Shown: piece by piece, positions 4,811 through 50,636 of the stretch | Layout: the number at the start of each line of letters is the position of its first letter | How positions within the stretch are numbered: position 1 is the stretch's first letter | Source: a virus | Length of the DNA stretch: 64,000 nucleotides | Virus genome (UHGV): UHGV-0175639 | Strand: one strand, 5' to 3' | The notes under the pieces: model-generated | Database searches by the model: none | Seen by the model: only the letters and a program-made list of their open reading frames with translations | Told to the model about the DNA's origin: nothing | Position numbers and translations under genes: made by a program

Positions 4811-4866
4811 CCGACAGAGCAGGCGAACAGGCCAGCAACAGGAGTTGTCACGGATAAAGGCGTACC

Positions 4867-5151
4867 TCAGTCGGACAGCTTTGCGAAGTACGCCGCGGCT
4901 TTTTTTAATATGTCCCGTTCGTCGGTAACCCGTTTCAGCTCTTTCTGGAGACGGCGGATCTCGGCCTGAGCATCTGACTGTTCTTTATTAGTGGAAGAAT
5001 CCGGACCGTACTTCTTTATCCAGGCATAAAGGCTGTGGGTGGTGATATCGAGACGTGTTGCAACGCTGGCAACAGAATAACCGCGATCAACAACCTGTTT
5101 GACTGCTTCAGTTTTAAACTCTTCGGGATAACGCTTACCGCTCATGGGCAC
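4867..5151 (-). CDS. IS3-family transposase OrfA (HTH, leucine-zipper region)
   Basis: 94 aa; EEFKTEAVKQV...HSLYAWIKKY pattern typical of IS3 OrfA. Confidence 0.85.
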   Translation of the reverse strand: MPMSGKRYPEEFKTEAVKQVVDRGYSVASVATRLDITTHSLYAWIKKYGPDSSTNKEQSDAQAEIRRLQKELKRVTDERDILKKAAAYFAKLSD

Positions 5152-5468
5152 CTCTCTTTAAGCCATCTTAAATGACACTGAGGTGTCTGTTAAACCCGTG
5201 GCGATTCAAACGCCGATCTCACACATAACCAGTAAAGGAAAACTAGTTCTCCAATTTAGCTCGCCAATTACAGGCATTCGCTCACTACAGCTTATCCAAC
5301 CATCCTTAGATGCGGCTGTATTGGCATAGGCCTTACGGTGCTTCTGTAGCTCTGCTGCAATCGCTCTCACGACTTCAACTGGTGCCCTTGCAGCAAACTC
5401 AATGTTGGTGATCAGCTCATTAAGATATTTCTCGCTTGGGTAGCATTTCTTATTGTTAACGGTGGTCA

Positions 5469-5654
5469 TTAGGCAGCTCTCTCAACAACAAGCAATTCGT
5501 CGTAGTCATAATCAGTTTCGGAACCATCCGTACCGAACAGAGTCACTTTGTCATTTTCCATCCAAAAAGATTTAACCGCACATTGTTGACCTTTAGATGT
5601 TATGAGCACATCACCAGGGATTACGTCTTCAGCGCGAACCTCTAGTGTTCTCAT
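5469..5654 (-). CDS. hypothetical protein, 61 aa
   Basis: Small ORF coupled to neighbours. Confidence 0.35.
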   Translation of the reverse strand: MRTLEVRAEDVIPGDVLITSKGQQCAVKSFWMENDKVTLFGTDGSETDYDYDELLVVERAA

Positions 5655-6181
5655 CGTGCTGCCCCCTCTTTGGTGAAAATGCCTGCTGCAATGCTGTTTA
5701 TGATGCTGTCAGTGCATGGAGTAGAAAGCTGGGCATCTCCAGCAATTTTCATGACCTCAACATCCGCATATCGAATACCGAGGTGTATCAGACCGGCTAT
5801 ACCTGACTTAAGTCGAACATTTTCCATAAACAGATCTTTTTCCCGCTGTTTAGCGGCTTCCAACTCCATCGACAATTTTTCCAACTGCTCTTTATGCTTC
5901 TTGTATTCCTGATACGCGTGCCAAGACTGACCTTTGCGCACACTATCAGTGATATCAGCAACCTGCTCTGGTGTTAGCGTGGTCAGTGGCTGTGCTGGAA
6001 AAATCATCACTTGCCCGGCATCCCAATCAAAACCCGCCTGAATTGACTGAACCTCAACTGATGGTGTTGAACCGATGCGACCAGGCGAATGAACAACGAT
6101 CGTTACATCCATATCGCGACGATGGCTGTGGTTGTTGGACAAAATACGATTCACCAACTCAGAAAATTTGGAAAATTTCAT
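5651..6181 (-). CDS. hypothetical protein, about 176 aa (start moved to MKFSKFSE)
   Basis: ATGA overlap with the upstream gene stop at 6178-6181; the longer N-terminal extension in the ORF track lies inside the upstream gene. Confidence 0.45.
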
Positions 6182-6501
6182 GCTGATCCCTCTTTCTCTC
6201 CCCGGATAATTCTGTTGCACACATCCACACACTCGTCGCAGATGAAAACGGCGTCCCCAGCAATTAACTTTTTGACGGCGTACTGGGATTTGTTGCAGAA
6301 GCTGCAACAAAGTGTTCGCCTGACTGATAAGGATGGAGCGCCAGATGTCAGCCGCTCCATATCGTTCTTGCGACGCAATATCACACGGCTGAACTCAACC
6401 AGTTTCTCCGGGGATATATCCTCCTCCGTAGCGAGCGTCTCTAGTCGTTCGAGTATGTTGAAGGCTTTTTCTTGGGTAATAGCAGAGTGCGATGTGGTCA
6501 T
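6178..6501 (-). CDS. ClpX-type C4 zinc-finger domain protein
   Basis: C-terminus [35 protein letters not shown] closely matches the ClpX N-terminal zinc-binding domain; no AAA+ module. Confidence 0.6.
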
Positions 6502-6965
6502 TTTCTTTCACCTTCAATGTTCGTGGCGCTGGCAAGATTGTCCTTGCGAAGAAGAGCGGCTATGCGCTTACTTCCATCCGAGATAACGCCCTCGTAATAC
6601 TCACGCTGCTCGTTGAGTTTTGATTTTGCCAACTCCAGTTGTTTTGTTAGTTCCGCAATACGGCAAACATCGTTGATACGCGTTTCCTCTAATGCGTTGA
6701 TCTCATCCAGTAGTGCCAGCACGGTAGCTGGACTGGCTGCGGCGATGAATTCAGCATTGGCCTGCTGTTCCATCTGGAAATCTTCATCGAAACCGCTTTC
6801 AGGATGCGCTCCTTCAATTCTGCAAATAGGAATATATCCAGCAACTTCACGATGAATTAGCGCATCATCACCATCTAATCGGCTCTCTCCATATTCGAGC
6901 GACCACTCACCACACGTTGCTTTCTCTGCCTTTTCACGCAGTGCCTGATAGTCAATCTTGCTCAC
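6498..6965 (-). CDS. Ead/Ea22-like prophage protein
   Basis: N-terminus [21 protein letters not shown] typical of Ea22-like proteins, from memory. Confidence 0.55.
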
Positions 6966-7462
6966 TGGATGACTCCTTTACGAAGCTGTTCAGCAATACT
7001 TACGCATATCTCTGCGCCTCTAATCAGCCCCGGAACGTTCTTGTTTGGCCCAACTTCACCATCAACAAAATCAATCATCGCGTTACGAGCCATATCCACG
7101 CCCTGCGCACGTACTTCAGCCAGAAAAGTATCGGTGGCTGGAGTCTCCGTTAATTCGCTAACCCAATTATCTCCGTGTTCCTCGGCACACATCGCATCGA
7201 ATGCTCGCTCAGATTCTTTCAGGGCTGCATTCTCCGCCGCTAATGCGTCTCTTTGCGCCCGCAACTTCTCAATTTCGGCAGCCATGTAGTAACCAACCAT
7301 AGCGAAGACGGCAAAAGAGTTGTCTGCCTCATCAGGCGACACTGAGGCCATTAGCAGGCCATCGTAAAAATCGTGACTCCCATTGGTGATCGCCACCGCA
7401 TAGGAGTCGTGGTTCTCGCGCTTGTGAATGAGAACTACGGGATTTTCGATTTTGTTACTCAT
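6962..7462 (-). CDS. hypothetical protein, 166 aa
   Basis: ORF preceded by the conserved GGAAAAACAC-ATG leader. Confidence 0.5.
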   Translation of the reverse strand: MSNKIENPVVLIHKRENHDSYAVAITNGSHDFYDGLLMASVSPDEADNSFAVFAMVGYYMAAEIEKLRAQRDALAAENAALKESERAFDAMCAEEHGDNWVSELTETPATDTFLAEVRAQGVDMARNAMIDFVDGEVGPNKNVPGLIRGAEICVSIAEQLRKGVIQ

Positions 7463-7600
7463 GTGTTTTTCTCTTCTTTGCTGTTACATAAGCACTACCA
7501 AGTGCTGGTTTATTTTCACAAATAAGAAAAGGTAGAAAACAATTTATTTAAGGCCATAACTTATGGCCTTTATTTATTCATGCAGAAGGATTTGTAGCGC

Positions 7601-7981
7601 CTAATTGTCGGATAAAATGGGTTGAGGTGCTTGCCAGTAAGCTCCACCGTCCCATGTGAACCCCATGCGAATAAGAGTGTTTATTGCGGCTTTGGTAGAC
7701 TCTGATTCGACGCTGACTTTTCGAAACTCTTGAACCTCTTTCGCCAACTTGTATGTAATTGTGCAGGGGACGATTGCAGCCCAGCCTTTCTCATGACTGT
7801 TAATGACCATCTGGATGTGACCATCCAGAATAGGTTGATCAGGCATGTTATTGAAAACGTCTGCCTGTTTTTGAATGTGAAGAAAAAGCCTTGCCAGCGC
7901 CATTTGCTCACTACGAGACAAGGGATTATCAAGAGGACTTTTTGCAAAAGCTGCTATACGCTGTGCATCAATGCCAAACAT
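7601..7981 (-). CDS. hypothetical protein, 126 aa
   Basis: ORF in the minus-strand array. Confidence 0.45.
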   Translation of the reverse strand: MFGIDAQRIAAFAKSPLDNPLSRSEQMALARLFLHIQKQADVFNNMPDQPILDGHIQMVINSHEKGWAAIVPCTITYKLAKEVQEFRKVSVESESTKAAINTLIRMGFTWDGGAYWQAPQPILSDN

Positions 7982-8685
7982 CAGCGCACCTCACCATCTT
8001 TATGGCTGGAGTTAACTTCCGCCATTAAATGTCTGACGTAATCGACAAGAGAGCCACCTGGTGGAATCTGGCATTCCTCAACTAACTGGAAGTAGATATC
8101 CGCTGCATTACGTGTATTACTACCCGCGCATATTCTTTCTTCCCGAAGTGCATGAAGCTCGTTGATCAAACGGTCACACTCTCCGTTACGCTGATCCACA
8201 ACGGCCTCAAGCTCTGCGACGCGTTCACCTGGCGTCTTACCTTCTTTGCGTTGGATGGTAACGACGAAATCGCCAATTGCAGGGACGTTGTAATCCAGCT
8301 CAAGGTAGTTTTTGGCACCGCTGCGGACGAACTCACCCGCGAACATGGTGGCGAACATCGCAGAGGCCACTTCGCCGTTGAAAAGTGACTCCAGATCTAA
8401 CGGAGTCCCGGCAGCAAGAGCCTCTTTTGCTGTATCCATTGCATCCATGAACCGATCAAACTCACTAGCGCGCTTTTCCAGGTCTTTCCATTGCTCGCTC
8501 CAACGTTTGGCAACGAAGTCTATGAATGTTTTCGCGGATTCATCAAAATTCCCCTCAAACTTAACGATGCCTTTATCAATAATGATCTGGCCTACCGCAT
8601 CCTCTGCATAACCTTTCAATGTAAACTTGAAAGGAAAATCGGAATGGCCTGTGACGTTAAAATGCTCTAACTGGAGGTTGCTCAT
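7981..8685 (-). CDS. hypothetical protein, 234 aa
   Basis: ORF preceded by the conserved leader. Confidence 0.5.
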   Translation of the reverse strand: MSNLQLEHFNVTGHSDFPFKFTLKGYAEDAVGQIIIDKGIVKFEGNFDESAKTFIDFVAKRWSEQWKDLEKRASEFDRFMDAMDTAKEALAAGTPLDLESLFNGEVASAMFATMFAGEFVRSGAKNYLELDYNVPAIGDFVVTIQRKEGKTPGERVAELEAVVDQRNGECDRLINELHALREERICAGSNTRNAADIYFQLVEECQIPPGGSLVDYVRHLMAEVNSSHKDGEVR

Positions 8686-8746: not shown

Positions 8747-10432
8747 TCATTTAACGCGTTTGAAAACGTATACGCTGACTGTGATCCCTGTGTCTTCAAA
8801 CTCGTTGGTAAACGACTTCCCTCTGGCATAAACGTAATTATCCATCGTCATCCAGTCCAGTATTGGCGCAGTGCCCGGCAATACTGCTACAAGACGCCCG
8901 CCGACTTTCAGATGCCCCAGCGCAGCCAGCGTGTGCTCTCTATGACGACCAAGCGAGTACGGCGGGTTCATAACGATTTTGTCGAACTGATAACCTGCGT
9001 TGTCCTCAGACCACTTTATGAAGTCGCAGCAAATCGTGTTCGTATACCCTTTTCCACGCAGGATATCAGCGAAGAGAGGTGCGATTTCTATGCAGGTAAC
9101 ATCTTCCAGATCGGCGTTTATATAGGCCAGAAGATCCCCACGTCCGGCTTGAGGCTCCAACAGCTTCTCACCAGGCTTCAATTCAGTGGCTCTTGCAACG
9201 TACTCAGCAATCAAGCGTGGGGTAGGGTAGAACTGGTGTGATTTTGTATCCGGTATTAAACCGGTAGCCACAATCGTATTTAGCGTATGGCCGATGTCAT
9301 ACGGGAACTGCCAGTGCTTTTTCTCCTGCACGCCGCCAATGAAGCTCAGTGTGCGCTCAAGCTCTTCCACCTGCGACTTCTGGAGAGCTGAATCAGAGAA
9401 GTACCATACGCCTTTGTCTTTGCTCAATCGCCCGTCACGAAGCGCAGTGCGAACCGGCACGGAGATCGTCTTCTGGATTAACCCGAACTGCTTTGGTGCC
9501 CGTGTTTTTGGCGCAGTTCGGCATGGCGCGGGGATTGCAGCAGGCATACTGTAAGCCAGCACCTCATTCAACTTCCAGGCCACGTCAGGATGTATTTCAA
9601 AGTGAACGTTGCCGTTCTTGAACATCTTCACGCGCATCAGATTTCCATCGACGTTCATCCAGTCACCGGTCTGGCAGTCGTTTGCCCGATACGCAGCTGA
9701 TAGCACCTCAGCAGTGCGGTTGATGGTAATAAATTCTTTGTGCGCGAAGAAATGAAGCAAGACACGCAGATCGTCGATGTAGTCCTCTTTGCGATAGTTC
9801 ACGCTAACGCTGTCCCGCCAGAAATCAGAAATGCAGTCAGCGATTATCAGACGCTCGCTGAAACCGTTTGTCTTATTTGTCTTGTGCGCAGGACTCAGCG
9901 CCTTAAACAAGCCATACACGCGCTCAGAGAGATATTTGTGCCTGTCATTCAGCAAATTAAGCATCGTGGGTATGACCGTTTCTGCTTTGAACTCCGGTAC
10001 ACCAACGAACTCTTTAACCTTCATCTGGTAGCCGGTTCTGTCAGTTTTGATGACTTCCTGTTTGCCCTCTATAAACTGCTCGCGCCACTCATCTCGACGG
10101 GAAGCTGGCATGATCAGCAAAACGTTAGTCATGTCCGTGACCTTCCTCCAGTACTCGGCCCAAATATTCTGTTTCACCCATTCCAGATCGACTTTATCCA
10201 ACCAACCTCGATTTAAACGCGAGCGATCTTCATCTGGTCGATGGTTTAGTCTCAGCAGGCGATTAATCATGTTGTGGCGTTCGTCGCCATAAACGAAGTC
10301 GTGTACCTGATACATGAAGGCGATCTCTTTCTCGCACTCGGCCACGATTTCGTGGATGACATTCATTTCCTGACGATAGTCGATAGCCGTGTTTGAGCTG
10401 GCATCGTCGATGATGGAAAGGGCTGTATTCAT
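8747..10432 (-). CDS. 561-aa protein with a C-terminal SAM-dependent N6-adenine methyltransferase-like domain
   Basis: C-terminal about 170 aa contain FYPTP, EPQAGRGDL and NPPYS motifs; N-terminal about 380 aa unassigned. Confidence 0.6.
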   Translation of the reverse strand: MNTALSIIDDASSNTAIDYRQEMNVIHEIVAECEKEIAFMYQVHDFVYGDERHNMINRLLRLNHRPDEDRSRLNRGWLDKVDLEWVKQNIWAEYWRKVTDMTNVLLIMPASRRDEWREQFIEGKQEVIKTDRTGYQMKVKEFVGVPEFKAETVIPTMLNLLNDRHKYLSERVYGLFKALSPAHKTNKTNGFSERLIIADCISDFWRDSVSVNYRKEDYIDDLRVLLHFFAHKEFITINRTAEVLSAAYRANDCQTGDWMNVDGNLMRVKMFKNGNVHFEIHPDVAWKLNEVLAYSMPAAIPAPCRTAPKTRAPKQFGLIQKTISVPVRTALRDGRLSKDKGVWYFSDSALQKSQVEELERTLSFIGGVQEKKHWQFPYDIGHTLNTIVATGLIPDTKSHQFYPTPRLIAEYVARATELKPGEKLLEPQAGRGDLLAYINADLEDVTCIEIAPLFADILRGKGYTNTICCDFIKWSEDNAGYQFDKIVMNPPYSLGRHREHTLAALGHLKVGGRLVAVLPGTAPILDWMTMDNYVYARGKSFTNEFEDTGITVSVYVFKRVK

Positions 10433-10573
10433 AATTACACCATTAAATAATTTGTTTTCTGATTGGTGTAATTATCGCAAACTTGAAAAGGCATAAAAGC
10501 TGCATTCATAGGCGTTACAGCAGATTTAAGGCGTAAAAATGGGGGCTTTCGCCCCCTGTCGACTGGTGCAGTA

Positions 10574-11140
10574 TTAGAGTGCGTATTGCGTTTTGTGCGG
10601 TTGCTTATTCAAGTCGTGGCGATGCGTAAGCTCCCGCATCATGTCTTCAAGCCGACTTTTCGTATCATCAAGCTGGTCGGCCATTGCTCCCAAAAGCTGG
10701 CGAACGGCCATTGGATCGTCACTGTTTAGTGATGGCATTTTATATCCCGCTTTAGAAGACATAAGATTGATTGCAGACATCAACATCGTTAGAGAAGACT
10801 TAAGTCCGGCAATTTCACGATCTTTGCTGGCAATAATCGTCTCACTATTGTTACCGTCATGGGTTCCTTGAGTCTCGCTCACCATATCCAAAGTCGCCTG
10901 CAACTTATTAGCGCGCTCTTTTTCGGCAAGATAATGAACACCGAAATGGTGTGCCAAAGCTACAACCTGAGTTGGCTCTTCAAAGGTGGAATTAAAATTA
11001 AGTACTGTAAACAGTCTCTCAAATATAGAAACGTCTTCTGTTCCCCGAACAATGCCTAACATTTTGACAAGTTCATTAGCATCCATTTCTTCGAATAGGG
11101 CGTTTTGTTCATCAGCTATTGCTTTGCATTTCTCGCACAT
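10574..11140 (-). CDS. hypothetical protein, 188 aa
   Basis: ORF with conserved leader and upstream AAACAAnTTGTTT motif. Confidence 0.5.
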   Translation of the reverse strand: MCEKCKAIADEQNALFEEMDANELVKMLGIVRGTEDVSIFERLFTVLNFNSTFEEPTQVVALAHHFGVHYLAEKERANKLQATLDMVSETQGTHDGNNSETIIASKDREIAGLKSSLTMLMSAINLMSSKAGYKMPSLNSDDPMAVRQLLGAMADQLDDTKSRLEDMMRELTHRHDLNKQPHKTQYAL

Positions 11141-11437
11141 GTGTTTTCCTTAATGCTTAAACAAGTTGTTTTCTTATTGGCTTTATTGTGATGTGGCATA
11201 AAAGGGGAGCAAGCTAAACGTAAAGGTGCAAACTCTCTATTTCGGTCAACGAAACACAAGGGCCAAATGGCCCTTGTCATTAACACTTTGCTTTACGAAC
11301 TAACGGATAAGCGAAGTAGATCGCCAAACCAATGAGGACGCCATCAGAAATGACAGACATCATCTTTCCCGTAAAATCCACCAACACCGCCATCACCAGA
11401 AGAGCAATGACGATCACAAGCCGGAATCTCTCAAGCA

Positions 11438-11863
11438 TTAGAGATAAGCATCCAGTGACAACTGAAGCGCCTGGGCGATCTTTTTCAGTGCCTGCTCTTC
11501 TTGTTCACCAATGCCGTCCTGATCGGCAATATCAAGGCACAGACACAGAACATCGACCGCCTCTGGAGTACCCGCAATATCAGACAGCTCACGAATAGCC
11601 TGTGCATTAGCAGAACGAGGGGACGCTTCGTAACGAGCACGGATATTGGCGCTCATTTGGGCAATTTCACCAGCAAACGGAGAAAACGCAGGCAGAGCTG
11701 CAATTGTCTTCTCAAGAATGGCAATTTCTTTTGCGTCACATGTGCCGTCGGCATAGGAGATCATGTACGCGCCCCACACGGTGGCCTCAACCGCATCACG
11801 GTTCTCCATTTTTTTGACTTCGATAACAGCTTTACGAGTTTTCTTTTTGAAGAAACCTAACAT
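11438..11863 (-). CDS. TerB-like domain protein
   Basis: 141 aa; acidic helical pattern resembling the TerB fold, from memory; weak. Confidence 0.4.
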   Translation of the reverse strand: MLGFFKKKTRKAVIEVKKMENRDAVEATVWGAYMISYADGTCDAKEIAILEKTIAALPAFSPFAGEIAQMSANIRARYEASPRSANAQAIRELSDIAGTPEAVDVLCLCLDIADQDGIGEQEEQALKKIAQALQLSLDAYL

Positions 11864-11956
11864 GTGTTTTCCTTTTATTATTTGTCAAAACAAGTTGTTT
11901 TCTAATTACATAAATTGCTTACGCAAAGATGGTCAATGCATATGCACTAACAGCCG

Positions 11957-12145
11957 TCAGAAATAACCAAGTACCGAACCGACTGGAAAAACAAAAATCC
12001 CAACTACACGAGCCAAGGTCATGCCAGCCTGAAACTGGAGATCGCCAGAGCAAACAAGTTTTATAATGTTCGATACCCAACCGGCGGCCATGAGGGCAAG
12101 AATTGCCAGCCAAATTTTTCCAAAGTGATTTGAAAACCAGTTCAT
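11957..12145 (-). CDS. small membrane protein, 62 aa
   Basis: Two hydrophobic segments. Confidence 0.35.
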   Translation of the reverse strand: MNWFSNHFGKIWLAILALMAAGWVSNIIKLVCSGDLQFQAGMTLARVVGIFVFPVGSVLGYF

Positions 12146-12154
12146 ACAACCGCC

Positions 12155-12649
12155 TTAGTCACAGCATGATCCTGAGTAACCGGATGAACTTGAGGTATCG
12201 CATCCACCGTCATCCCATCCAGAGTGACAGGACGCTCTACTGGAGTGGTGGTAATTGTCGTCGACGGAGGTGTGGTGATGGATGAACCCGGCATCAAAAG
12301 GCTCTGGCCGGCTGGAACGGCTACCGTCGCCAGTGAAACTATAATGAGAACGTAGGCCATTGGTTTCAGCCTCTTTCTTTGAAAATTTTCCATTCGAACT
12401 GTCCTTGTTGTTTTTCTCCTTCACTAAAGGCCGTGTACTTTTCGCTTCGCGTGAAGAACCAGAGGCAACAATCGCCCCCACGTTCGCAACAACTGACGCT
12501 TGATTATCTAAACGTTCATTCAGCAACCGAACGGTAGTCTCTAGTTCATCAAGACGTGACATAACACGACCGCTAAATAATTCGGCCAAAATTTGACGTA
12601 AAGAACGAGGACGTTTAGTTACAGAAGTGAAATAGGTTTGACGTGCCAT
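12155..12649 (-). CDS. hypothetical protein; frame ambiguous with overlapping signal-peptide ORF 12142-12393
   Basis: N-terminal 85 aa look protein-like (coiled coil), C-terminal part is low complexity; an alternative frame encodes a signal peptide MAYVLIIVSLATVAVPAGQ. Confidence 0.3.
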   Translation of the reverse strand: MARQTYFTSVTKRPRSLRQILAELFSGRVMSRLDELETTVRLLNERLDNQASVVANVGAIVASGSSREAKSTRPLVKEKNNKDSSNGKFSKKEAETNGLRSHYSFTGDGSRSSRPEPFDAGFIHHHTSVDDNYHHSSRASCHSGWDDGGCDTSSSSGYSGSCCD

Positions 12650-12797
12650 GTGGACTCCATCCAGTGTCAGAAAGAGTTGCGGCTGGCGATTGCCAGCCGC
12701 CTTTCTCGTTCCATCCTGGAACTGTGTCTTACCGACACATTGTCATCCTGACGCCGATAAGATACATGATTTAAAATGATAGGTAAACACTTACTTA

Positions 12798-13388
12798 CTA
12801 TTTGTTATAAACAAAACCAATATCTTTCTTGTGAGGCATATCTGCTGCTGAAAAAGCTGCGATCTTCGCGAGTCGATCACATATTTCATTTTCACGATGC
12901 CCGGCGTGACCTTTAACCCACTTCCAGCGAACATTATGTCGACTTGCGGCCTCATCCAGACGCTTCCACAGATCAACATTCTTTACCGGTTTTTTGTCAG
13001 AAGTCATCCATCCATTGCGTTTCCACCATTTCATCCACTGTGTCATGCCGTTTTTCAGATACTGGCTATCAGAGTGCAAAATAACGTTGCATGGATATTT
13101 CAAACGCTCCAGCCCGATAAGTGCCCCCATCATCTCCATGCGGTTATTGGTGGTGCTATGAAAACCATCTGAGAACTCGCGTTCCTCACCACGATACTGG
13201 AGAACGATACCGTAACCGCCCGGGCCACCCGGATTTTTAAGGCAAGAGCCATCACTAAAGATTTTCACGGTTTTAAGCTGGGGATTGAACTCTACGACAG
13301 GCGTTGTGGGATTGGTGCGGGGAGAATTTTTGTTTTTGTCTTTTTTGCGAGTTTTTGCTTGCGATCGGGCTGGTGTCTTCGTCGTCAT
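12798..13388 (-). CDS. rnhA: ribonuclease H
   Basis: [17 protein letters not shown]...[10 protein letters not shown]...HSDSQY...KGHAGH matches RNase HI; start set at MTTKT with a GGAG RBS. Confidence 0.85.
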
Positions 13389-13970
13389 ATAAACTCCTGA
13401 ATCAAGCGCCGCGCCGATTTTTCCTCGCGCGTGCGCACACGCGTGCGTGTTAATAATTATTAAAATAAACAAATTACTTCCCAGAACAGGTTTTTATAAA
13501 CCTGAACTGAACGAACGAAGTGAGTGAAGTTCACCTCGAACGAAGTGAGAGGTTGTCTTTTCAGGTAATACTCTCCCAGGGAGGTGAGTATAAAAATCTC
13601 TCACCAACCTGGTCGTTTCATAACCTGAAAAGTTATGGTCTAAGTCTACTGCCAGCTTAGACTTGGGAAGTTATGGATGACAGCACCCCAGAACCGAGAT
13701 CTTCCCACACTTTATGAAGGGGAGTACTGGATTCAACCTCTCGAAACACCCCAGACTCGACAATCATAAAGTGACCCTTGTCTCTGCTCACTTTGGTTCC
13801 CCCTTCCCCGACACCTAAACGGCACCAGTTCTACGCTGGTAGTGAGCTTTTTTAAACCTGACGCCAGTGACGCTTACCCCCACCCATCAGGTCGAGTCTC
13901 CAGTCTACGACTGGAAACTATCAGATCTTAGCACTTACAATTCACTTTATGAATAGTTTGTACTTATCTA

Positions 13971-14225
13971 TCATTGTGATTGATTATTTTCTCTACCATG
14001 TAGTTGAACATTCAAGGCAAACACCTCATTGATCAACTCACCTAAAAGCTGTTCAACAAGTTCGCGATGCTCGCCAAGATGCAAGCACTTAATTGCCCAT
14101 TCGTACAAGTTGAAAGCCTGCTCACGATCTTTCATCATTTCACGAGCCTGGGCCAGAAAATCGCTCTCTACGAGCGCAACGACATTAGTCGGGTATGACA
14201 TGTTGGTTTCCTTAAAGTGGTTCAT
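13971..14225 (-). CDS. hypothetical protein, 84 aa
   Basis: ORF only. Confidence 0.4.
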   Translation of the reverse strand: MNHFKETNMSYPTNVVALVESDFLAQAREMMKDREQAFNLYEWAIKCLHLGEHRELVEQLLGELINEVFALNVQLHGRENNQSQ

Positions 14226-14308
14226 AAAATCGATTTTAAAGCGTCTGGGAAGGGGTTCTAGTGGATTCTGTAGTGATGTTCAGGTCTGGAGTCTCTGATA
14301 CAAAACAG

Positions 14309-14367
14309 CCTGCTTCCGTATATTAATAATTAATATGTGGTTATTTATATATACAGAAGCAGGCTAA
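14309..14367. terminator. large AT-rich hairpin CCTGCTTCCGTATA...TATACAGAAGCAGG downstream of the Dam-like gene
   Basis: 8-bp GC stem with AT-rich interior, U-rich tract on the transcribed strand; a near-copy is at 60705-60768. Confidence 0.5.
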
Positions 14368-14386
14368 TTACAGACGCCAGAACAAA

Positions 14387-14980
14387 CTAAGCAGCCTTCT
14401 TTGATGGTCTTTTTTTCCTGATCACATTCGCATGATCATACCCTCCCAGACTTTTCATGACGTCCAAAGGGATCTTGCTTATAGAGTGCCCAGCGTCCTG
14501 ACAGAATCCTCGAAAAACAACGAGCATACTGCCACCTGGGTTGATGTTTACTTCTACCTGACCCAGATTTACGTCAGGTTCGACAAACGCTACGCGGCCA
14601 CCAGACAGAATAATCGTCTCATTCGCACACTCTGTTGCACGCTCATACCACTTTGTATCTAGGGATTGAGGAATTAGCATCACTGTTGTAACTCCGCGAG
14701 CCTGCTCACGTATAGCCGCATCAATCCAGGGGTAGATTTTGGAGTAGGGTGGATTGAGGAAGGCAATTGTACCTGGCTGTCCCCATTCAGATTTCAAAGC
14801 ATCACGCTCAACGCCTATGAAATTAGGCAGCTTTGCATTGTCCTTGTTGCAGGCAACGTCAACATCAAATGTCACTCCAAGATAACGTTGAATGGCAGAA
14901 AACAGCCAGTCAGGTGTTCTCCAGAGGTCACGAAGAGAGTTGTCGCGCTTTCGCTGTTTGATTTTTTCGGCTGCAATCAT
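14387..14980 (-). CDS. phage-type DNA N6-adenine methyltransferase (Dam family)
   Basis: WRTPDWLF...FDVDVACN...FLNPPYS motifs of the phage Dam family. Confidence 0.75.
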   Translation of the reverse strand: MIAAEKIKQRKRDNSLRDLWRTPDWLFSAIQRYLGVTFDVDVACNKDNAKLPNFIGVERDALKSEWGQPGTIAFLNPPYSKIYPWIDAAIREQARGVTTVMLIPQSLDTKWYERATECANETIILSGGRVAFVEPDVNLGQVEVNINPGGSMLVVFRGFCQDAGHSISKIPLDVMKSLGGYDHANVIRKKRPSKKAA

Positions 14981-15163
14981 CTTCTTTCTCGATAGGTAAG
15001 TATATACCTATTTTTGCATTTGATTTTATGTCTGGCAATCAAATAAAACGCGCCAGAAATGCAAACGAGAAGCTCTCTGGCGCGTTTTTGTGGTGCTGGG
15101 TATGTGATTGGCTTACCCAGTACTATAAAGCTCTCTATGGGCTTTATTTTAAGTAGGGGAACG

Positions 15164-15973
15164 TCATCCAATAGTGTACTCCGCGACAAACTTCTTAACG
15201 ATCGGTGATTCTTCGTTCAATGTTAGATTTCCACCGTCTCTAACGGCAATTCCTGTCGCTGGAAATACAGCCATCATTTGCCCAGCCTGAGTTGACGCAG
15301 TGTTAAGCGGATACGGTTTTTCTGGATTGCTCATTAAAGCAATCTTAATACTATTACTTGTAGCCTTCTTTTCTGTGAGAAGGTGTCTCATGGAAATTAC
15401 CGTGTAAACACTAATATCTGGACCTCCGCTAAACCAATTAAGAAGGTTTAATATCTTATCCTTTGCTTTGACAGGCGCGTTATCGTAAGCGTCTAAGAAA
15501 ATATCTTTTTCTAAGCCCGCTTTATTGAAAAACGAATCATCTTTATCACTTAAAGTAAAACGAGGACCTCTTGCAGTACGAGCTTTTTTATTTGTATTGC
15601 TATCATTTGACTGTTGAACTTTTAATTCATCATTAACCTCAACACACTCTTCAACCTCAATAAATCCCAATTGTTCTGGCTCGTTTTCGGCAGCTTCAAC
15701 ACTTTCAGCGTTAATTACGTTTATAGGCTCATGCGCTAACTCCAACTCATTTAAAGTAGAGCTGAAATCACCTGCTTTTTCTTCATTGAACAGTTCTTCG
15801 GCAACATCATCAGAACTCATGGCTACGCCAGCATCTAGGCCGAGCAGCAGATCGTCAATATCATCAGTATTTTCAACCTGTGCAGCTTTTTTTACTGGTT
15901 CATCAAGTGATTGCAACATGGCTGTCAGCTCGTCCAGATCATCATTTGTCATTACATTTTCAACCGAACTCAT
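15164..15973 (-). CDS. acidic protein, 269 aa (strongly D/E-rich N-terminal half)
   Basis: Long runs of D/E in the first 130 aa. Confidence 0.5.
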   Translation of the reverse strand: MSSVENVMTNDDLDELTAMLQSLDEPVKKAAQVENTDDIDDLLLGLDAGVAMSSDDVAEELFNEEKAGDFSSTLNELELAHEPINVINAESVEAAENEPEQLGFIEVEECVEVNDELKVQQSNDSNTNKKARTARGPRFTLSDKDDSFFNKAGLEKDIFLDAYDNAPVKAKDKILNLLNWFSGGPDISVYTVISMRHLLTEKKATSNSIKIALMSNPEKPYPLNTASTQAGQMMAVFPATGIAVRDGGNLTLNEESPIVKKFVAEYTIG

Positions 15974-16133
15974 GTAAGTCTCCTTCTGTTTGGTTACATT
16001 TGCGTTTCGATGGCTGCATTTTGACTAAACCTATCAGGCGGAAAAGTATTAAATACAGGCAGGAAATGATTGAAAGGCGACTGTTCTTTAAAAGAAAGCC
16101 TGCTTCAAACTCTCTTTAAAGCAGGCTTTTGTT

Positions 16134-16691
16134 TTACACAATTTCAGAGGGTAATTTAAAAAATCCGTACTTATTACGTGCCTTAAAGAAGCATTGCATC
16201 ATTAAGTTTGTGTCATATAAGGCACTATGTGCTTTGGCATGATCGTATATAAAGCCAAGAGAGAAGGCCAACTCTTCAAGGCGGGGACGTTTACCGTCTT
16301 CTGTGGCCCACAATCCCGATAACATAGTATCTATAACAGGAACTTCTGGCAGTCTTACTCCATACCCTGAAAACTCGTGTCGAATAAATGGTATATCAAA
16401 TGCTTCGCCGTTATGAGCAACCCACACACTACATGCCCCCATATAAGCGCCAATTTCGCTGGCATGATTTGACAACAAAGGTTCAGCTGCGAGCTGTTCC
16501 AATGAAATGCCATGAACGGCTTGAGCTTTCGGATCTATGTTTCTGCGAGGGTTAAAACGCATCTCCAGACTATCAATATGTCTCTGTGTCTCCAGTTCAT
16601 AGCGGGTAATTGCGATTTCAATAATTTTATGACCAGCAAGGAAATCCAGTCCCGTAGACTCGATATCGATGCCTGCAACAATCGTTGTCAT
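16134..16691 (-). CDS. DnaQ-like DEDDh 3'-5' exonuclease
   Basis: GIDIESTG, HNGEAFDIPF and HSALYDT motifs. Confidence 0.75.
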   Translation of the reverse strand: MTTIVAGIDIESTGLDFLAGHKIIEIAITRYELETQRHIDSLEMRFNPRRNIDPKAQAVHGISLEQLAAEPLLSNHASEIGAYMGACSVWVAHNGEAFDIPFIRHEFSGYGVRLPEVPVIDTMLSGLWATEDGKRPRLEELAFSLGFIYDHAKAHSALYDTNLMMQCFFKARNKYGFFKLPSEIV

Positions 16692-28031: not shown

Positions 28032-29147
28032 TCACACAGCCTCCGAACTCTCCGCTTCGGTGAGGATTTCCTGACACAAAATATCCAACTTGCTTAGATC
28101 AAATCCGCCGTCAGTATCGTGGACAATCTTGCAATAAGCAGATACCGACTCTCCCAGGCTATCGATTTTGCTGGTTTCCGTTGTGCTTGCTGTCCCTTCC
28201 ATCATTGATGACTTACGGATGAAGTTGCACACGACACCTTTTGCACCCATTGTTTTGAGGATGTTCTGGTACTTAATGCCTTCTTCATCGTTCTCAATTA
28301 CGGCGCGGAAACGCACGTAGTTGCCGCGAATTTGGTCATCGGCAACATAATCTTCCAGGTTAATGAATTTAGGCGCACTGGTTTCGTAGTGACTGAAACT
28401 GCCGTCCGGGTTTACGATCATGTAACCAGCCAGAGATCCAACATCTCCCCAATTTTGATGGGTCAGCGCACCGACACTGATAACTCCAGGAATGACCTCT
28501 TTATGGTTGTGGTAATGCCCACTAAGCACGAGACGAAAGCCGATATCCTTTAACTCCTGCGCATCGATACCGACGTCAGGCATTGTTGGAATGGCTTTGT
28601 TAATGGATGTATGGATAACAACATCATGATTATCACCTTCTACGCTCTTACGTAATGCTTTCAGATCGCTGATAAGCTCTGCATGATTGTTACGCCAGCT
28701 AATCAGGTGGACAGTCACATCACCAATTTTTATTGAGTGTGGGCGCTTGCCACATACGATTACCACGCCGATAGAACTCAGCGATGCTGCTGCGTTGGCG
28801 CTATATAATGAATCGTTGGTTTCAAGATCGTGATTACCGGCCAGCATTACTACTGTCAGATCAAGCTCGTTGATAATCCACTTGTACGTTTCAGTTACGT
28901 AATGCAAAACAGAAGGGGACACAGTTCCTCGGACGTGAAATGTATCACCGGCAACCAACATGTACTTACAACCGGCCTTCTTCATGGCGATGGCTGCTTC
29001 TTTCGTTGCTTCCAACTGTATTTCAAGTCTGGAGTTAAGCCCCTCAGCGTTCGTCGTGGAGAACGCATCCCATTTGTGGTAGTGGCAGTCAGAAATGACG
29101 CCGTATGGCAAAGTCATGTGTTTTTCCTTTGTGGTTATTTGATACAA
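28032..29147 (-). CDS. SbcD/Mre11-like nuclease
   Basis: Calcineurin-like phosphoesterase motifs (DCHYH, AGDTFH, GNHD). Confidence 0.85.
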   Translation of the reverse strand: MYQITTKEKHMTLPYGVISDCHYHKWDAFSTTNAEGLNSRLEIQLEATKEAAIAMKKAGCKYMLVAGDTFHVRGTVSPSVLHYVTETYKWIINELDLTVVMLAGNHDLETNDSLYSANAAASLSSIGVVIVCGKRPHSIKIGDVTVHLISWRNNHAELISDLKALRKSVEGDNHDVVIHTSINKAIPTMPDVGIDAQELKDIGFRLVLSGHYHNHKEVIPGVISVGALTHQNWGDVGSLAGYMIVNPDGSFSHYETSAPKFINLEDYVADDQIRGNYVRFRAVIENDEEGIKYQNILKTMGAKGVVCNFIRKSSMMEGTASTTETSKIDSLGESVSAYCKIVHDTDGGFDLSKLDILCQEILTEAESSEAV

Positions 29148-30497: not shown

Positions 30498-30584
30498 ATG
30501 TCATTTTTCTGTGATTGTTAGCCGAGGCAACGATAACCCACCAGGTGCGCCGAAGGTAGTAAATGCCTGTTTTAATTATTCACA

Positions 30585-30660
30585 TATCCACAGGATAGAT
30601 CCTAATAAAGAGATCCATAGATAGATCCTTGTATAGATCAAATAAGATCCCCGATCGCTG
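30585..30660. promoter_or_regulatory. origin-like region: DnaA-box-like TATCCACAG plus a dense GATC cluster
   Basis: At least six GATC within about 70 bp just upstream of the repA iterons. Confidence 0.4.
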
Positions 30661-30697
30661 TAAGCCGCGCCACGACTGGTCTGAAGCCATGTTCATG

Positions 30698-30798
30698 TAT
30701 GCTACCAGCGGTAATTGATAGTCTGTCAACGGTTCGCCGTATGCTGCCAACTGTTTTTGGTATGCTGCCAGCGGCAAATCAAGTATGCTGTCAGCGGT
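30698..30798. repeat. iteron array upstream of repA (four copies, consensus TATGCTNNCAGCGGT)
   Basis: Copies at 30698, 30740 (degenerate), 30761, 30784. Confidence 0.8.
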
Positions 30799-30817
30799 TG
30801 AATGACAAAGGTGTCCA

Positions 30818-31913
30818 CATGTCCACAAAAAATAAAAAAGGTAAAAATAACAAAGAAGTAGAAGATAATCTCGACAACTTTGAAGAAGGTTCCCTTGAAT
30901 TGTACACAGGGGAACTTGTCCCTAATAGCAACAATACAGTCCAACCAATTGCGTTGATGCGGCTGGGGTTGTTCGTGCCCACGCTCAAGGGGACAAAATA
31001 CAGCAAGCGTAATAAGCCAAATGAGATCGATGCTTCAAAGGAGCTTGTTCAGCTCGAAGTAGCCCGTTCTGAAGGTTATTCCGATATCAAGATAACCGGT
31101 CCTCGTCTCGACATGGATCATGATTTCAAAACGTGGGTGGGCGTTGTGCGTTCGCTGGCAGAATACGGCGAACCTAACGGTCGTGTCGAGTTAAGCATCA
31201 CGAAATTTGCGAAGTTTTGTGGCTATCCATCGTCACAGATCCGCAAAACACTCCGCGACCGGCTTACAAACAGTCTTTTGAAGATCATGCGTACAACTCT
31301 GTCTTTTCAGAGAACGTATGAAGAAAAGAATGTCGACGGCTCTAACAAGATCTCGCTTCTGATGGTGCACCTCATCAATAGCGTGGACTACAACGAGCAG
31401 AAAGATACGGTGGTGTTCTATGCAGAACCGAAGCTGGCCGAACTATATCGCTTTGACCATAAGGTTCTTTTGCAGTTAAAGGTTATCAATAAGCTACCAC
31501 GCAAAGAAACAGCACAGGCTCTGTACACCTTCATCGAAAGTCTTCCAACCAAGCCTGCGCCGGTATCGCTTGCTCGATTACGTGCGCGACTCAATTTGAG
31601 TAGCAGGAATGTCAGCTCGCAGAATCAGACTATACGTAACGGCTTAAAAGCTCTCCAAGATTTGGGCTATCTCGAATACAGCGAGATTAAGCGAGGGCGG
31701 TCGATCTATATCCAGATTCACAGCCGCAATCCAAAACTCAAAGTCGCACCGCCAAAACCTGAAGACATCGAACCCAAAAAACCAGATGAGAAAGCTGGGG
31801 AAATTGATGCCAAACAGAACATTATCAACAAGATAACCGAACTTTCGCAGAATTTGACGCCTGAAAATATCAAGATGATTGAGATCCTTTCCAATAGTCT
31901 CAAACTGCTTTGA
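30818..31913 (+). CDS. repA: RepA-like replication initiator (iteron-binding)
   Basis: 365 aa from MSTKNKKGK; flanked on both sides by iterons; start of the longer tracked ORF rejected because it overlaps the iterons. Confidence 0.7.
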
Positions 31914-39280: not shown

Positions 39281-42200
39281 TCACGTCTTAATGGTTTCTG
39301 CTACGTCGGCTAATATCGCTTCTAGTCGTTCTCCCTCTTCAGGTCTGAAGTAAAGAATGTTGGGGTTAAACCCGTAAAAGACAGTAACGTCAAGGTCTGG
39401 AAGATACTCCTTCCTGCCGACCAAATCGGATGGCTTGTTTTTGTTGTTAAACAATGAAGTTGCCCGGCTGCCACACGTCAGCACATAGGTCGGACGCACC
39501 AGATTGATCTCTTCACGCATAAAGTCGGTGAACTGGCCGATCTCGTCTTTGGTGTAGTCTTTTTCTTTGTCTTTAACCTTCTTGCAAACACCTGTGACAT
39601 AGAGATCGCCCATGCGTAAATCTCCAGCCGTCAATAGCTTGGCCTTAAAGTCGTCGTATCCGTTCTCCATAAAGTAACCGGTTCGAGCATCATTGCCGTT
39701 CGCATTGTCCAGAATGATCATGATTTTCGGCTTAATACCAATGCTGGGGCGGATTAGTTCATCACCTAAGCCCATTTCAGCCGCCATCCGCGTCATGAGT
39801 ACGTTAATTTCAGCCGAACGTTTGGGGTTCATCTCAAACGGACGTGAGGCTTTAACTGCGTCTATGACAAGGTTTCCCATCAATTCAGCCTGGTCGCGTA
39901 GGCGCTCTGGATCAGTTGCTGGCAGACTGCCTGGCTCGATGGATGCAAACGCCCCTACTTTTTGCAGCGATTCGCGCACTCGACTATTACAGGCACGTTT
40001 CTCGACAGCTTCTTCGAATTGCGCCAGTGACTCGAATTTGCCGCCAACTTTTTCTCGCGCTCTCATGATGGCTTGGCAGCCATTCTCAGAACACCCTTTC
40101 ACAGCAGAGAAGGGCGCATACAGCACCTGGCTGCCATCTTCAAGCGTGCGGATCTCGATTCGGTTAGATGACACGTTAACGTCTGGTGGCAATACGCGAA
40201 TACCATAGGTCAGCGCATCTTTAACCAGCCCCTGGTGTTTATCTTCGCCAAGAATAGTGAGAGCAGCAGCGAAGAACTCCGCGGGATAATGAGTTTTCAA
40301 CCACATAGATTGATAACTGATTAAGGAGTAAGCAACAGAGTGTGATTTGTTGAACTGGTAGGCACCATTCTTTTCGAATGCGGTCCAGATCTCCTTCGCT
40401 TTCATCTCTGATAGCCCTGGATGTGACGCTGTAACGCGTACTGCGTTTATAGGTAGTTTTGCGCCGTACTCAAGTGCCTCTTCGACAGTTTTCAGAGTTC
40501 CGTCTTCGCATTTAAAATGTTCCGCACGGTGAATGCGCTGTGTAGTGCCATCTTCCAGCTCAACGTCTATCCAGCCAGCTTGAGCCTGAACGATGAACTT
40601 CTCGCCCATGCTCTTCATTTTTTCCATGTCTTTTTTACCGATCGCTTTACGAACGCCGTCAGCTTCAGCCATTGTGAAGCCAGCAAGCAATCGAGTCGCG
40701 TTCATCGTCTGTTCCTGATAGAGAATCACGCCATTTGTTTCTGCGGTAAGTTCATCAAGAACGGGGTGTAATGATTCCGGCGTCATAAAGCCTTTGGCTA
40801 CAGAAACATAGTCATCCAACATGCCTGACTGAATTGGCCCCGGCCGGAAGAGCGCAGTCGTAGCAACAACCGTTTTAAAGCTCATTGGCTCAATTCCACC
40901 ACCTAAATCTTTAAGCAGCTTGCGCATTGGGCCTGATTCAAGCTGGAAAACACCTTGAGTGTACCCAGCAGCAAAACCATCCAGCACCTTGCGATCTTCA
41001 AGAGAAATGGCATCAAGATTGATATCTTCACCTGTGTTCTCTTTTATGTAGCGTTTTGCACTATCGAGCAAATCGAGAGTTGCCAGACCAAGTACGTCCA
41101 GCTTAATTAGGCCCATAGCCTCGCAGTAACGCTTGTCAAATGCGATACAACGCGCGTCACCACGGCGCTCAACCGGTGTACGTTCTGTTAGAGGAACACC
41201 TGCTACGATCATCCCTGCCGCATGTCTACCAAAGCCACGCATAAGGCTTTGTAACTTGCAGGCTGCATTGAATGCATCAGGATATTTTGTTGCGTATTTG
41301 TCGAGACTTGCCAGTTGTTCGCGCAGCTCTTCCAATGGAAGGCTATCATCCTCGACGTTCTTCAGTTCTTTTGATACCGCCATATCTGCGGACTCCACAC
41401 CATAAATACGAGCGGTGTCACGTAGTGCAGAGGCTGCGCCCAGGTAGGTGAAGTTCGGAATGCCTGCAACGTAATCTTCGCCGTAGCGTTCATTCAGATA
41501 CTCGATCACCTCATGGCGACGTGCCTGGCTGAAGTCCAAGTCCGCATCCGGCAAGTCGAGACGCTCAGGGTTGATGAAACGCTCAAACAGAAGACCGTGA
41601 CGGATTGGGTCGACGTTGGTTATGCCTATGCACCACGCCTCCAGAGAACCGGCAGAGGAACCACGACCAGGCCCGACAGGAATGCCAGTTTCACGGCTGT
41701 GATTCATCAGATCGCGTACCATCAGGAAGTAACCACAGAATCCCAGGCGAGTCAGCGTGTCCATTTCGTACTTTAGCCGCTCAACATAAACCCTGTTCTC
41801 AGAAGCAGGTGGTGTGTATCCAAACTCTTTTGTGGTAAGACGTTTACGCAGCCCTGCAACAGCCAGTTTCATCAGCGTTGCAGGTTCGTCGTCTGCCATC
41901 TTGGGCAGTGCTGGTGGCAATTCATGCCAGCGCCATGTGCAGGCATCGATAATGGAGTCCTGCGTTGTTGAGGCCATTGCAGCTGTTACCGGCACATCCA
42001 TGCGAACGGAGAAGGCTTTAAGCGCCTCAAGGAGATGGCGACGACCATTGATGGCGTTATCTCGCTGGTGGGGGATACGCAGACGATGCGGCTGGTCGAT
42101 TTTTATGTTGTTCGTAACCATGTGCGCAATGTCTTTAATGTCTGCATCGTCGATCGATTCGTAATAAGCGGGATAGAACGCTACTGGCTCTATTTTCAGT

Positions 42201-42799
42201 GCGCTGGCGACTTTCATCGCTCGGACGTTAATCTGGTCGTAGAATGGGGTAGGGTGCGGATAAACCACACTATAGAAGTTGTCTTTCCCGCCCGCTGTAA
42301 TCAGTGAGCTTATGATTTTTGCAAAATCGTTGCGTTGGAACACGCTACCGATGTCGGAAGTGAGCAGGATGATGTTGCCTTTGGCATATGTAGAAACCAA
42401 CTTTTCGAGCGAGAGACGCGGTACAAAGTAGAACTGTTCTCGTGTGTTGGCCACCGTCATTAGTTCGCAGATGTCGCGATATCCTTGCTCATTTTTAATT
42501 AGAGCGGTAAACGAGTAGTTACGTCCCCGCTCTAATGATTCCATACATCTCATAGATTCTTTAGCAAGTTTAGCCCGGTGCTCGTATGTGGGATCATCAA
42601 CAATGTTTAGTTTCACACCACAAATAACCGCCATGTCGTCACCAGCGGCACGTTGTAGTGGAATAACGCTCGCAATATTCATGCTATCTGCTGAAATTAC
42701 AGCGGTGTAGCCAGCTTCTCTGGCAATCTTCACCGCGTTTTCTGCTTTTAGAGCCGACTCCCCAAGTGAGAAGTCAGTTCGAACCATCAGTGCCTTCAT
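39281..42799 (-). CDS. dnaE: DNA polymerase III alpha subunit
   Basis: 1172 aa; N-terminal PHP domain, polymerase core and fingers colinear with DnaE. Confidence 0.9.
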   Translation of the reverse strand: MKALMVRTDFSLGESALKAENAVKIAREAGYTAVISADSMNIASVIPLQRAAGDDMAVICGVKLNIVDDPTYEHRAKLAKESMRCMESLERGRNYSFTALIKNEQGYRDICELMTVANTREQFYFVPRLSLEKLVSTYAKGNIILLTSDIGSVFQRNDFAKIISSLITAGGKDNFYSVVYPHPTPFYDQINVRAMKVASALKIEPVAFYPAYYESIDDADIKDIAHMVTNNIKIDQPHRLRIPHQRDNAINGRRHLLEALKAFSVRMDVPVTAAMASTTQDSIIDACTWRWHELPPALPKMADDEPATLMKLAVAGLRKRLTTKEFGYTPPASENRVYVERLKYEMDTLTRLGFCGYFLMVRDLMNHSRETGIPVGPGRGSSAGSLEAWCIGITNVDPIRHGLLFERFINPERLDLPDADLDFSQARRHEVIEYLNERYGEDYVAGIPNFTYLGAASALRDTARIYGVESADMAVSKELKNVEDDSLPLEELREQLASLDKYATKYPDAFNAACKLQSLMRGFGRHAAGMIVAGVPLTERTPVERRGDARCIAFDKRYCEAMGLIKLDVLGLATLDLLDSAKRYIKENTGEDINLDAISLEDRKVLDGFAAGYTQGVFQLESGPMRKLLKDLGGGIEPMSFKTVVATTALFRPGPIQSGMLDDYVSVAKGFMTPESLHPVLDELTAETNGVILYQEQTMNATRLLAGFTMAEADGVRKAIGKKDMEKMKSMGEKFIVQAQAGWIDVELEDGTTQRIHRAEHFKCEDGTLKTVEEALEYGAKLPINAVRVTASHPGLSEMKAKEIWTAFEKNGAYQFNKSHSVAYSLISYQSMWLKTHYPAEFFAAALTILGEDKHQGLVKDALTYGIRVLPPDVNVSSNRIEIRTLEDGSQVLYAPFSAVKGCSENGCQAIMRAREKVGGKFESLAQFEEAVEKRACNSRVRESLQKVGAFASIEPGSLPATDPERLRDQAELMGNLVIDAVKASRPFEMNPKRSAEINVLMTRMAAEMGLGDELIRPSIGIKPKIMIILDNANGNDARTGYFMENGYDDFKAKLLTAGDLRMGDLYVTGVCKKVKDKEKDYTKDEIGQFTDFMREEINLVRPTYVLTCGSRATSLFNNKNKPSDLVGRKEYLPDLDVTVFYGFNPNILYFRPEEGERLEAILADVAETIKT

Positions 42800-50549: not shown

Positions 50550-50636
50550 CTGGCGGAGAGTAATGGAATCGAACCATCATCGTTTGCACAATGGAACGGT
50601 TTTCAAGACCGCTTGAGCACCATGCTCCCTACTCTC
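50550..50636 (-). tRNA. tRNA-Ser (anticodon UGA), long variable arm, CCA encoded
   Basis: Manual fold: acceptor GGAGAGU/ACUCUCC, anticodon loop CUUGAAA, T-loop GGTTCGATTCC. Confidence 0.65.

Follow-up and report, generated by a model that had tools for sequence, protein, structure and literature searches.

The phage Dam family, which includes T1 Dam and the Dam proteins of Stx phages and lambdoids, is made up of small, orphan N6-adenine methyltransferases with an NPPY motif. The DNA mimics Ocr (T7 gp0.3) and ArdA have a high negative charge on a rigid, DNA-shaped fold. A third arrangement, a DNA-binding domain with an acidic disordered tail that carries a short conserved interaction motif, is seen in T7 gp2.5, E. 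coli SSB and HMGB1, whose tails bring in partners and act in cis as competitors of DNA. Three genes that invite comparison with these are found in a phage-plasmid of the SSU5-like group, carried by a 64,000-nucleotide (nt) stretch of the virus genome UHGV-0175639 (hereafter the window). According to the literature, SSU5-like phage-plasmids also move resistance genes among Enterobacteriaceae, and a preprint reports that DefenseFinder reveals few anti-defence systems in SSU5-group elements. A sequence-only reading of the window had proposed a possible anti-restriction module at 8747-15973, composed of a large methyltransferase, a Dam-like methylase and an acidic protein. Our analysis makes it probable that these are instead independent genes of the SSU5-like backbone, namely two orphan N6-adenine methyltransferases and a DNA-binding protein with an acidic tail, and that no dedicated module exists.

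Over the 7.2-kb stretch that holds the three genes, identity is 96.6-98.3% to Escherichia phages CMS-2020a, Cyrano and PhiR41_1, 82.5% to Salmonella phage SSU5 and 78-81% to Klebsiella phage-plasmids; these nucleotide identities mark the 64-kb window as an SSU5-like phage-plasmid of E. coli. Every gene from ~5.6 to 28 kb is carried on the minus strand. Upstream of the three genes lie a DnaQ-like exonuclease at 16134-16691, a kinase-like AAA protein, dihydrofolate reductase (DHFR) and thymidylate synthase, and the same block also holds ribonucleotide reductase and SbcC-like and SbcD-like (Metallophos-domain) proteins. Given this upstream gene content, and a DnaE-type polymerase encoded further along the window at 39281-42799, the three genes form the distal end of an early nucleotide-metabolism/replication block. 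They are as follows:

8747-10432, minus strand: 561-amino-acid (aa) orphan methyltransferase, with an N-terminal helical region, DUF4942 and a C-terminal S-adenosylmethionine (SAM)-dependent N6-adenine-type domain
14387-14980, minus strand: 197-aa phage Dam-family N6-adenine methyltransferase (PF05869, TIGR01712)
15164-15973, minus strand: 269-aa two-part protein (PHROG 5235, 'unknown function')

The coordinates bear out that the three genes lie within 7 kb, but nine other open reading frames (ORFs), including p188, TciB-like, TerB/TciA-like, p62, p164, RNase H and p84, fall inside the 7.2-kb span, as do terminator-like hairpins. Hairpins are found around the gene of the 269-aa protein (the acidic gene) and Dam at 16090-16134, 15045-15088 and 14307-14365, and between Dam and the 561-aa gene at 12679-12700, 11256-11277 and 10541-10556. 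With hairpins placed between the genes, transcription of all three as one operon appears unlikely, a judgement weakened by the terminator and promoter scans being consensus pattern matches only. The hairpins after the exonuclease (16090-16134) and after Dam (14307-14365) have a common core, AAGCAGGCT/AGCCTGCTT, and bracket the acidic-protein/Dam pair; the one between those two genes (15045-15088) is a perfect 13-bp hairpin.

Conservation of the gene order was assessed in 80 SSU5-group loci from IMG/VR, counting the neighbours of the acidic gene where the flank sufficed. The exonuclease is upstream of the acidic gene in 77/77 loci, Dam is downstream of it in 76/76, and the DUF4942 methylase lies within 8 kb in 55/64. 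A distant sample comprised 11 loci, including Pseudomonas Nickievirus phages and several ~100-kb metagenomic viral contigs, which were located with two narrow alignments, a wide alignment having no conserved stretch; nine of them had 6-8 kb of downstream flank. In all 11 distant loci the exonuclease is followed by the acidic winged helix-turn-helix (wHTH) gene, and in seven the full order of thymidylate synthase, DHFR, AAA protein, exonuclease and acidic wHTH gene is retained. Among the nine with downstream flank, none has Dam downstream of the acidic wHTH gene and one has a DUF4942 methylase; a Pfam scan of their 117 downstream ORFs returned one or two methyltransferases and no PF05869. The constant partner of the acidic gene across distant phages is the replication/nucleotide block, not a methylase. 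Adjacency of the three genes is fixed only within the SSU5 lineage and is backbone synteny, not a functional module, because nine unrelated genes and several hairpins separate them. Weighing on the other side, the unbroken adjacency of the acidic gene and Dam within the SSU5 group leaves a lineage-specific functional link possible. Homologues of the acidic protein occur in Nickievirus phages of Pseudomonas, where phage psageB1 is predicted to be lytic and showed no temperate behaviour (PMC8537276), which argues against a role of the protein specific to plasmid maintenance or lysogeny.

The strong acidity reported for the 269-aa protein holds overall (isoelectric point (pI) 4.27, net charge -27) but is confined to residues 1-125, for which the pI is 4.05; residues 126-269 are basic, with a net charge of +4 and a pI of 9.3. 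The protein is divided as follows:

15599-15973, minus strand: acidic tail, residues 1-125, net charge -31
15902-15943, minus strand: conserved short motif DDLDELTAMLQSLD in the acidic tail
15833-15865, minus strand: second similar motif in the acidic tail
15167-15556, minus strand: wHTH domain, residues 140-269
15446-15475, minus strand: helix with PVKAKDKILN, in the wHTH domain
15272-15301, minus strand: recognition helix TASTQAGQMM, in the wHTH domain

The AlphaFold2 model of the C-terminal domain is confident and shows three helices and a beta-hairpin wing, as in a wHTH fold. The tail is predicted to be largely disordered, with a predicted local distance difference test (pLDDT) score below 50 at residues 85-133 and of 52-82 elsewhere (means of 10-residue blocks). 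The DNA-mimic surface that structure prediction might have revealed is not seen, as the folded part is the basic wHTH and the acidic residues sit in the low-pLDDT tail. No sequence relative of the protein was found in Pfam, NCBIfam, PADLOC or the PDB, and a fold search of BFVD gave unnamed proteins only. A search of 5.8 billion proteins returned 55 close clusters, in which no function is assigned and the names given are 'hypothetical' or 'uncharacterised'; those with a named source organism are all from Enterobacteriaceae and mostly from contigs of ~100-110 kb. In alignments the C-terminal 135 residues are highly conserved; outside the short N-terminal motif, the acidic half differs among members in both sequence and length. 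An exhaustive HMMER search with the C-terminal domain gave 267 clusters at 50% identity, nearly all of them 210-340 aa in length and with the domain in a C-terminal position. In 108/130 distant relatives the N-terminal part is acidic, at a net charge of -10 or lower (median -18). Across 60 diverse members, K173, N176, T225, Q229 and Q232 are invariant and map to helix 1 and the recognition helix in the model, and most of the 60 can be aligned at the N-terminal motif, whose consensus is [DE][DE]L[DE]A[IM]L..L[DE]. In the Nickievirus homologue an acidic N-terminus with DDLDAMFDDLE is followed by a basic linker and then by the wHTH.

These features allow the DNA-mimic proposal to be judged. If the acidic protein were a DNA-mimic anti-restriction protein that forms an entry-protection module with the two methylases, its overall acidity would be explained, as would its place next to Dam throughout the SSU5 group. 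The charge of its N-terminal 125 residues is comparable in magnitude to that of ArdA-type DNA mimics and, like Ocr and ArdA, it combines high negative charge with a mobile element that also carries methylases. We nonetheless consider such a module highly improbable. Pfam searches gave no ArdA or Ocr match at E<=0.01 for the 269-aa protein, nor at E<=0.5 for 60 family members. Unlike in Ocr and ArdA, the charge lies in a tail that is poorly conserved and predicted to be mostly disordered, the conserved part is a basic wHTH, and the genes that accompany it are replication genes. The absence of Dam, and the single DUF4942 methylase, in the nine distant loci and the hairpins between the acidic gene and Dam also speak against it.

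There are other possible explanations for this architecture. The likeness to T7 gp2.5, SSB and HMGB1 can be no more than an analogy of mechanism, as the fold of the 269-aa protein is wHTH and not OB or HMG, its tail is N-terminal and there is no sequence relationship. We propose that the protein would bind DNA through its conserved basic wHTH domain, as its fold and conserved polar residues suggest, and would regulate or organise the programme of replication and nucleotide metabolism. The N-terminal amphipathic motif would recruit a protein partner, and the acidic tail may act in cis as a competitor of DNA at the binding domain, by analogy with the tailed proteins above. A point that counts against this proposal is that wHTH domains can also mediate protein contacts. 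One alternative, which we hold to be possible but doubtful, is that the protein is not a replication factor but a transcription activator of the middle/late programme that contacts the host RNA polymerase through its motif. The invariant polar residues of the recognition helix, the conserved acidic amphipathic motif at the N-terminus and the position of the gene as the last conserved gene of the early block would all suit an activator. However, a search for operator or iteron sites for the wHTH protein found only terminator-like hairpins near the gene, and the conserved neighbours (the DnaQ-like exonuclease and nucleotide-metabolism enzymes) suit a replication role equally well. Very unlikely, in our view, is a further possibility in which the protein is a DNA-anchored acidic 'decoy', with the wHTH holding phage DNA and the tail mimicking DNA locally or capturing a host factor. 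If this were true, a host nuclease, a restriction complex or a part of the replisome would be captured, and replicating phage DNA would be protected or primed. The protein would then be the founding member of a new family, with an anti-defence or takeover mechanism unlike that of Ocr or ArdA, conserved across ~100-kb siphophages and phage-plasmids (the 267 clusters).

The C-terminal NPPY methyltransferase domain described for the 561-aa protein was confirmed, both by its motifs and by PHROG 6263 'DNA methyltransferase', which matches the protein end to end. Its parts are:

9548-10015, minus strand: DUF4942 region, residues 140-295, a Pfam match and the presumed target-recognition/DNA-binding part
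8750-9250, minus strand: catalytic methyltransferase domain, residues 395-561, from conserved motifs and PADLOC
9218-9238, minus strand: motif X-like HQFYPTP, residues 399-405
9137-9157, minus strand: motif I EPQAGRG, residues 426-432
8957-8968, minus strand: motif IV NPPY, residues 489-492

The Pfam match to DUF4942 (PF13708) has E=1.7e-20 and 74 bits (cut-off 25), and an NCBI 'DUF4942 domain-containing protein' is 100% identical to the 561-aa protein. In 30 homologues, down to 33% identity, HQFYPTP, (L)EP.AG.G and NPP(Y/F) are kept, with most residues invariant or nearly so. The invariant residues include F401/Y402/P403, A429/G430 and N489/P490/P491 in the catalytic domain and, in the DUF4942 part, D221-L222-R223 and the HPD..AW..N motif. 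The order of the motifs (X, I, IV) is that of the gamma-class N6-adenine type, and the PADLOC models mad2 and MTase_II, built for DNA methyltransferases of restriction-modification (R-M) and MADS systems, match residues 394-523. The AlphaFold2 model is confident, with a mean pLDDT of 80.8, and in Foldseek only its C-terminal domain was matched, by HsdM, M.TaqI, M.BseCI and CamA and also by Trm11/TrmN. While the catalytic fold is like that of M.TaqI and type I HsdM, the 561-aa protein stops ~70 residues past NPPY and is therefore without the C-terminal target-recognition domain of M.TaqI; its extra 395 residues are N-terminal and, with DUF4942 among them, presumably recognise the DNA target. 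HsdS and HsdR partners are likewise missing: Pfam and PADLOC gave no HsdS-like neighbour among the ORFs adjacent to the 561-aa gene, and no nuclease or restriction model matched any neighbouring ORF of either methylase. Both methyltransferases are orphans.

Further context for the 561-aa enzyme comes from its relatives. Two chromosomal DUF4942 homologues are carried by lambdoid-type prophages, in early operons, where they come after the repressor and Cro-like genes; one of them also comes after replication genes. Both adjoin other orphan methylases (N6_N4_Mtase and C5 DNA_methylase), and the genes around the homologue differ between the two prophages. These prophage enzymes and the 561-aa protein have a common architecture, invariant motifs, orphan status and an early-operon location. 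The same type of catalytic domain is present in 221 phage records, some annotated as DNA methylases; in some Pseudomonas phages it occurs under genes annotated as internal virion protein or PLxRFG-domain protein. In the literature on the DUF4942 group we found no member with a published function, the domain being mentioned only in passing, and found no functional data in that on SSU5 methylases and pHCM2 methylation.

The substrate of the 561-aa enzyme is likely to be DNA, judging from its motifs and model, and we word this no more strongly because NPPY Rossmann domains are shared with RNA and protein enzymes and Trm11/TrmN are among the top Foldseek matches. Methylation of RNA or protein instead of DNA is unlikely, although several points favour it over our reading. 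TrmN, Trm11 and other RNA methyltransferases score similarly to the DNA enzymes in Foldseek, the NCBIfam matches are weak and only to rRNA adenine methyltransferases, and NPPY is common to RNA m2G and protein-glutamine (HemK-type) methyltransferases. Set against these are the motif order together with the FYPTP-type motif X, which are typical of gamma-class DNA N6-adenine enzymes, and the PADLOC matches, which are to DNA methyltransferases. The DNA methylases next to both prophage homologues, and the recurrence of the catalytic domain in phage proteins annotated as DNA methylases, point the same way.

As the sequence-only reading had recognised, the 197-aa protein belongs to the phage Dam family. 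PF05869 matches it with E=2.9e-38 and 131.6 bits (cut-off 28.1), NCBIfam TIGR01712 'phage N-6-adenine-methyltransferase' with 113.3 bits (cut-off 97.05), and the 'orphan methyltransferase' models of PADLOC match it as well. Relatives were counted in 1,230 phage records, among them those of Stx phages, lambdoids, PY100 and T1. The match to the family is full-length, with NPPY, small size, orphan status and phage location in common with T1 Dam and the Stx/lambdoid Dam; identity to the named examples is only 25-41%. Its motif lies as follows:

14744-14755, minus strand: NPPY, residues 76-79 of the 197-aa protein

The non-specific adenine methylases Hia5 and Hin1523, considered as possible PF05869 members that would have suggested broad protection, were dropped from consideration, since the paper on them describes the two as relatives of EcoDam, T4Dam and DpnM and gives no link to this family.

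The distribution of GATC in the window brings in another possible role for the Dam-family enzyme. Six GATC sites, repeats of the ATAGATCC type, lie within ~90 bp (30580-30670) in an AT-rich tract. The cluster is directly upstream of four copies of the iteron-like repeat GTATGCTGCCAGCGG and of a Rep_3-type initiator gene (30699-31913). The four GTATGCTGCCAGCGG repeats run into the start of the Rep_3-type ORF (stretch 30580-30780), whose annotated start is likely too far upstream. From its sequence, 30580-30780 is probably the plasmid origin and is possibly Dam-sensitive. One hypothesis is that the enzyme serves mainly the element's own replication or gene control, by methylating GATC at the plasmid origin and elsewhere during rapid replication. 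As the chief function we hold this to be possible but doubtful. It draws on the cluster and its position, on the layout resembling that of the origins of P1 (oriR) and of the chromosome (oriC), where clustered GATC sites are Dam-dependent, and on the lack of GATC avoidance, the window having 266 such sites where base composition predicts 245. However, the host has its own Dam, PF05869 enzymes are found in 1,230 phages of many lifestyles without such an origin, and a role at the origin is compatible with protection.

Protection of the element by self-methylation is plausible from family membership and context. We regard it as reasonable because the conserved motifs are intact, no restriction partner is encoded nearby, homologues in two prophages have orphan-methylase neighbours, and palindromes are avoided. 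Counted over the whole window, many 6-bp palindromes are strongly depleted (observed against expected): AAGCTT 1 vs 19, GAGCTC 0 vs 11.6, GCATGC 0 vs 9.6, GAATTC 1 vs 10.3 and CTGCAG 3 vs 16.4. CTAG is low too, at 40 vs 93 expected. Selection by type II restriction systems could account for such avoidance. Most likely, the two orphan enzymes would act on the DNA of the element itself, both while it is carried as a plasmid and during lytic growth, and DNA so methylated would resist restriction systems that cleave these sites in unmethylated form. For the Dam-family enzyme, an origin or regulatory role may come in addition.

Between the RNase H and 84-aa genes, the same region holds a further conserved feature:

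13475-13896, minus strand: 422-nt conserved non-coding element, in an ORF-free stretch between the 84-aa gene (13971-14225) and RNase H

The element keeps 86-91% nucleotide identity in loci whose acidic protein is only 54-67% identical; for the SSU5 copy the figure is 86.7%, compared with 78% over the ~3 kb around it. Its core is more conserved than the flanking region, and a profile of the element matches 75/80 SSU5-group loci. RNAalifold on 16 sequences gave 98 pairs in 16 helices, with compensatory double changes in 30 pairs, most of these changes coming from one deep split (four L075-like sequences at ~60% identity). Paired cells amount to 99.4%, against 33-49% with slid partners, and the covariation score is 0.285, against 0.04-0.07 in slid controls, with 0/500 shuffles reaching the observed values; the structure was derived from the same alignment that was used for this comparison. 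The folding-energy z-score is -4.7. About ten pairs are mostly G-U on the minus strand, suggesting that the RNA is transcribed in the same sense as the genes. Altogether, it is probable that SSU5-like phage-plasmids encode a new structured RNA here. A 36-aa ORF inside it was rejected as the cause of conservation, as it has frameshifts and stops in three lineages and no third-codon-position substitution bias.

Rfam gave no match to the element at gathering scores and, at E<=1, only two chance-level matches outside the core. The element is present in 232/5,426 complete E. coli genomes, and nothing is annotated at it in the eight RefSeq records looked at among these 232. In more distant lineages, a search with a covariance model built for the central domain returned no copies. 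A scan of species-representative genomes with a 23-nt pattern gave four loci, two of which are Kluyvera contigs with the full element in SSU5-like context. In a third, Buttiauxella gaviniae NZ_LXEP01000001.1 (L167) at 4842-6188, a truncated sbcD-like gene is joined to the 322 nt at the 3' end of the element, and the product of this gene is 84% identical to that of 28032-29147 in the window up to the junction; the sequence suggests that an SSU5-like element was rearranged here and left this remnant. A match in an Acidobacteria metagenome-assembled genome covers ~27 nt only, is consistent with chance and was discarded.

G-rich runs occur within the element, and after it come an alternating CG/CA tract and then the RNase H gene. 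These features prompted the idea that the element may act as a structured rnh leader, as a primer RNA or as an R-loop RNA. The alternating purine-pyrimidine tract, ACACGCACGCGTGTGCGCACGCGCG (13392-13470), lies directly upstream of the RNase H ribosome-binding site and is conserved across most SSU5-group loci. The listed TTG start of RNase H (13472) is probably wrong, and an ATG near 13391 fits the Cyrano annotation.

Two other regions of the window were noted. The stretch from the 561-aa methylase to RNase H (10433-12150) is a variable spot, with counterparts at 5687-8320 of locus L001 and 5687-7430 of locus L002. The window has the TciB-like and TerB/TciA-like genes there, Cyrano is ~920 bp longer with two extra genes, and SSU5 has the Ant anti-repressor instead. 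Four tRNA genes are clustered at 50554-51074 on the minus strand. One of them scores 47.3 against the Rfam tRNA-Sec threshold of 47, and we suspect a tRNA with a long variable arm, not a true tRNA-Sec.

By a marker from this region, SSU5-like phage-plasmids are present in ~4% of complete E. coli genomes (232/5,426). The structured element, with neither an Rfam family nor an annotation, is probably the most unusual feature of the stretch. The acidic protein should leave lists of DNA-mimic candidates and, going by its model, would be better viewed as a conserved, unnamed DNA-binding component of the replication block. Knowing which genes counter restriction helps to explain the host range of SSU5-like phage-plasmids, and the two orphan methylases are sensible candidates for such genes.

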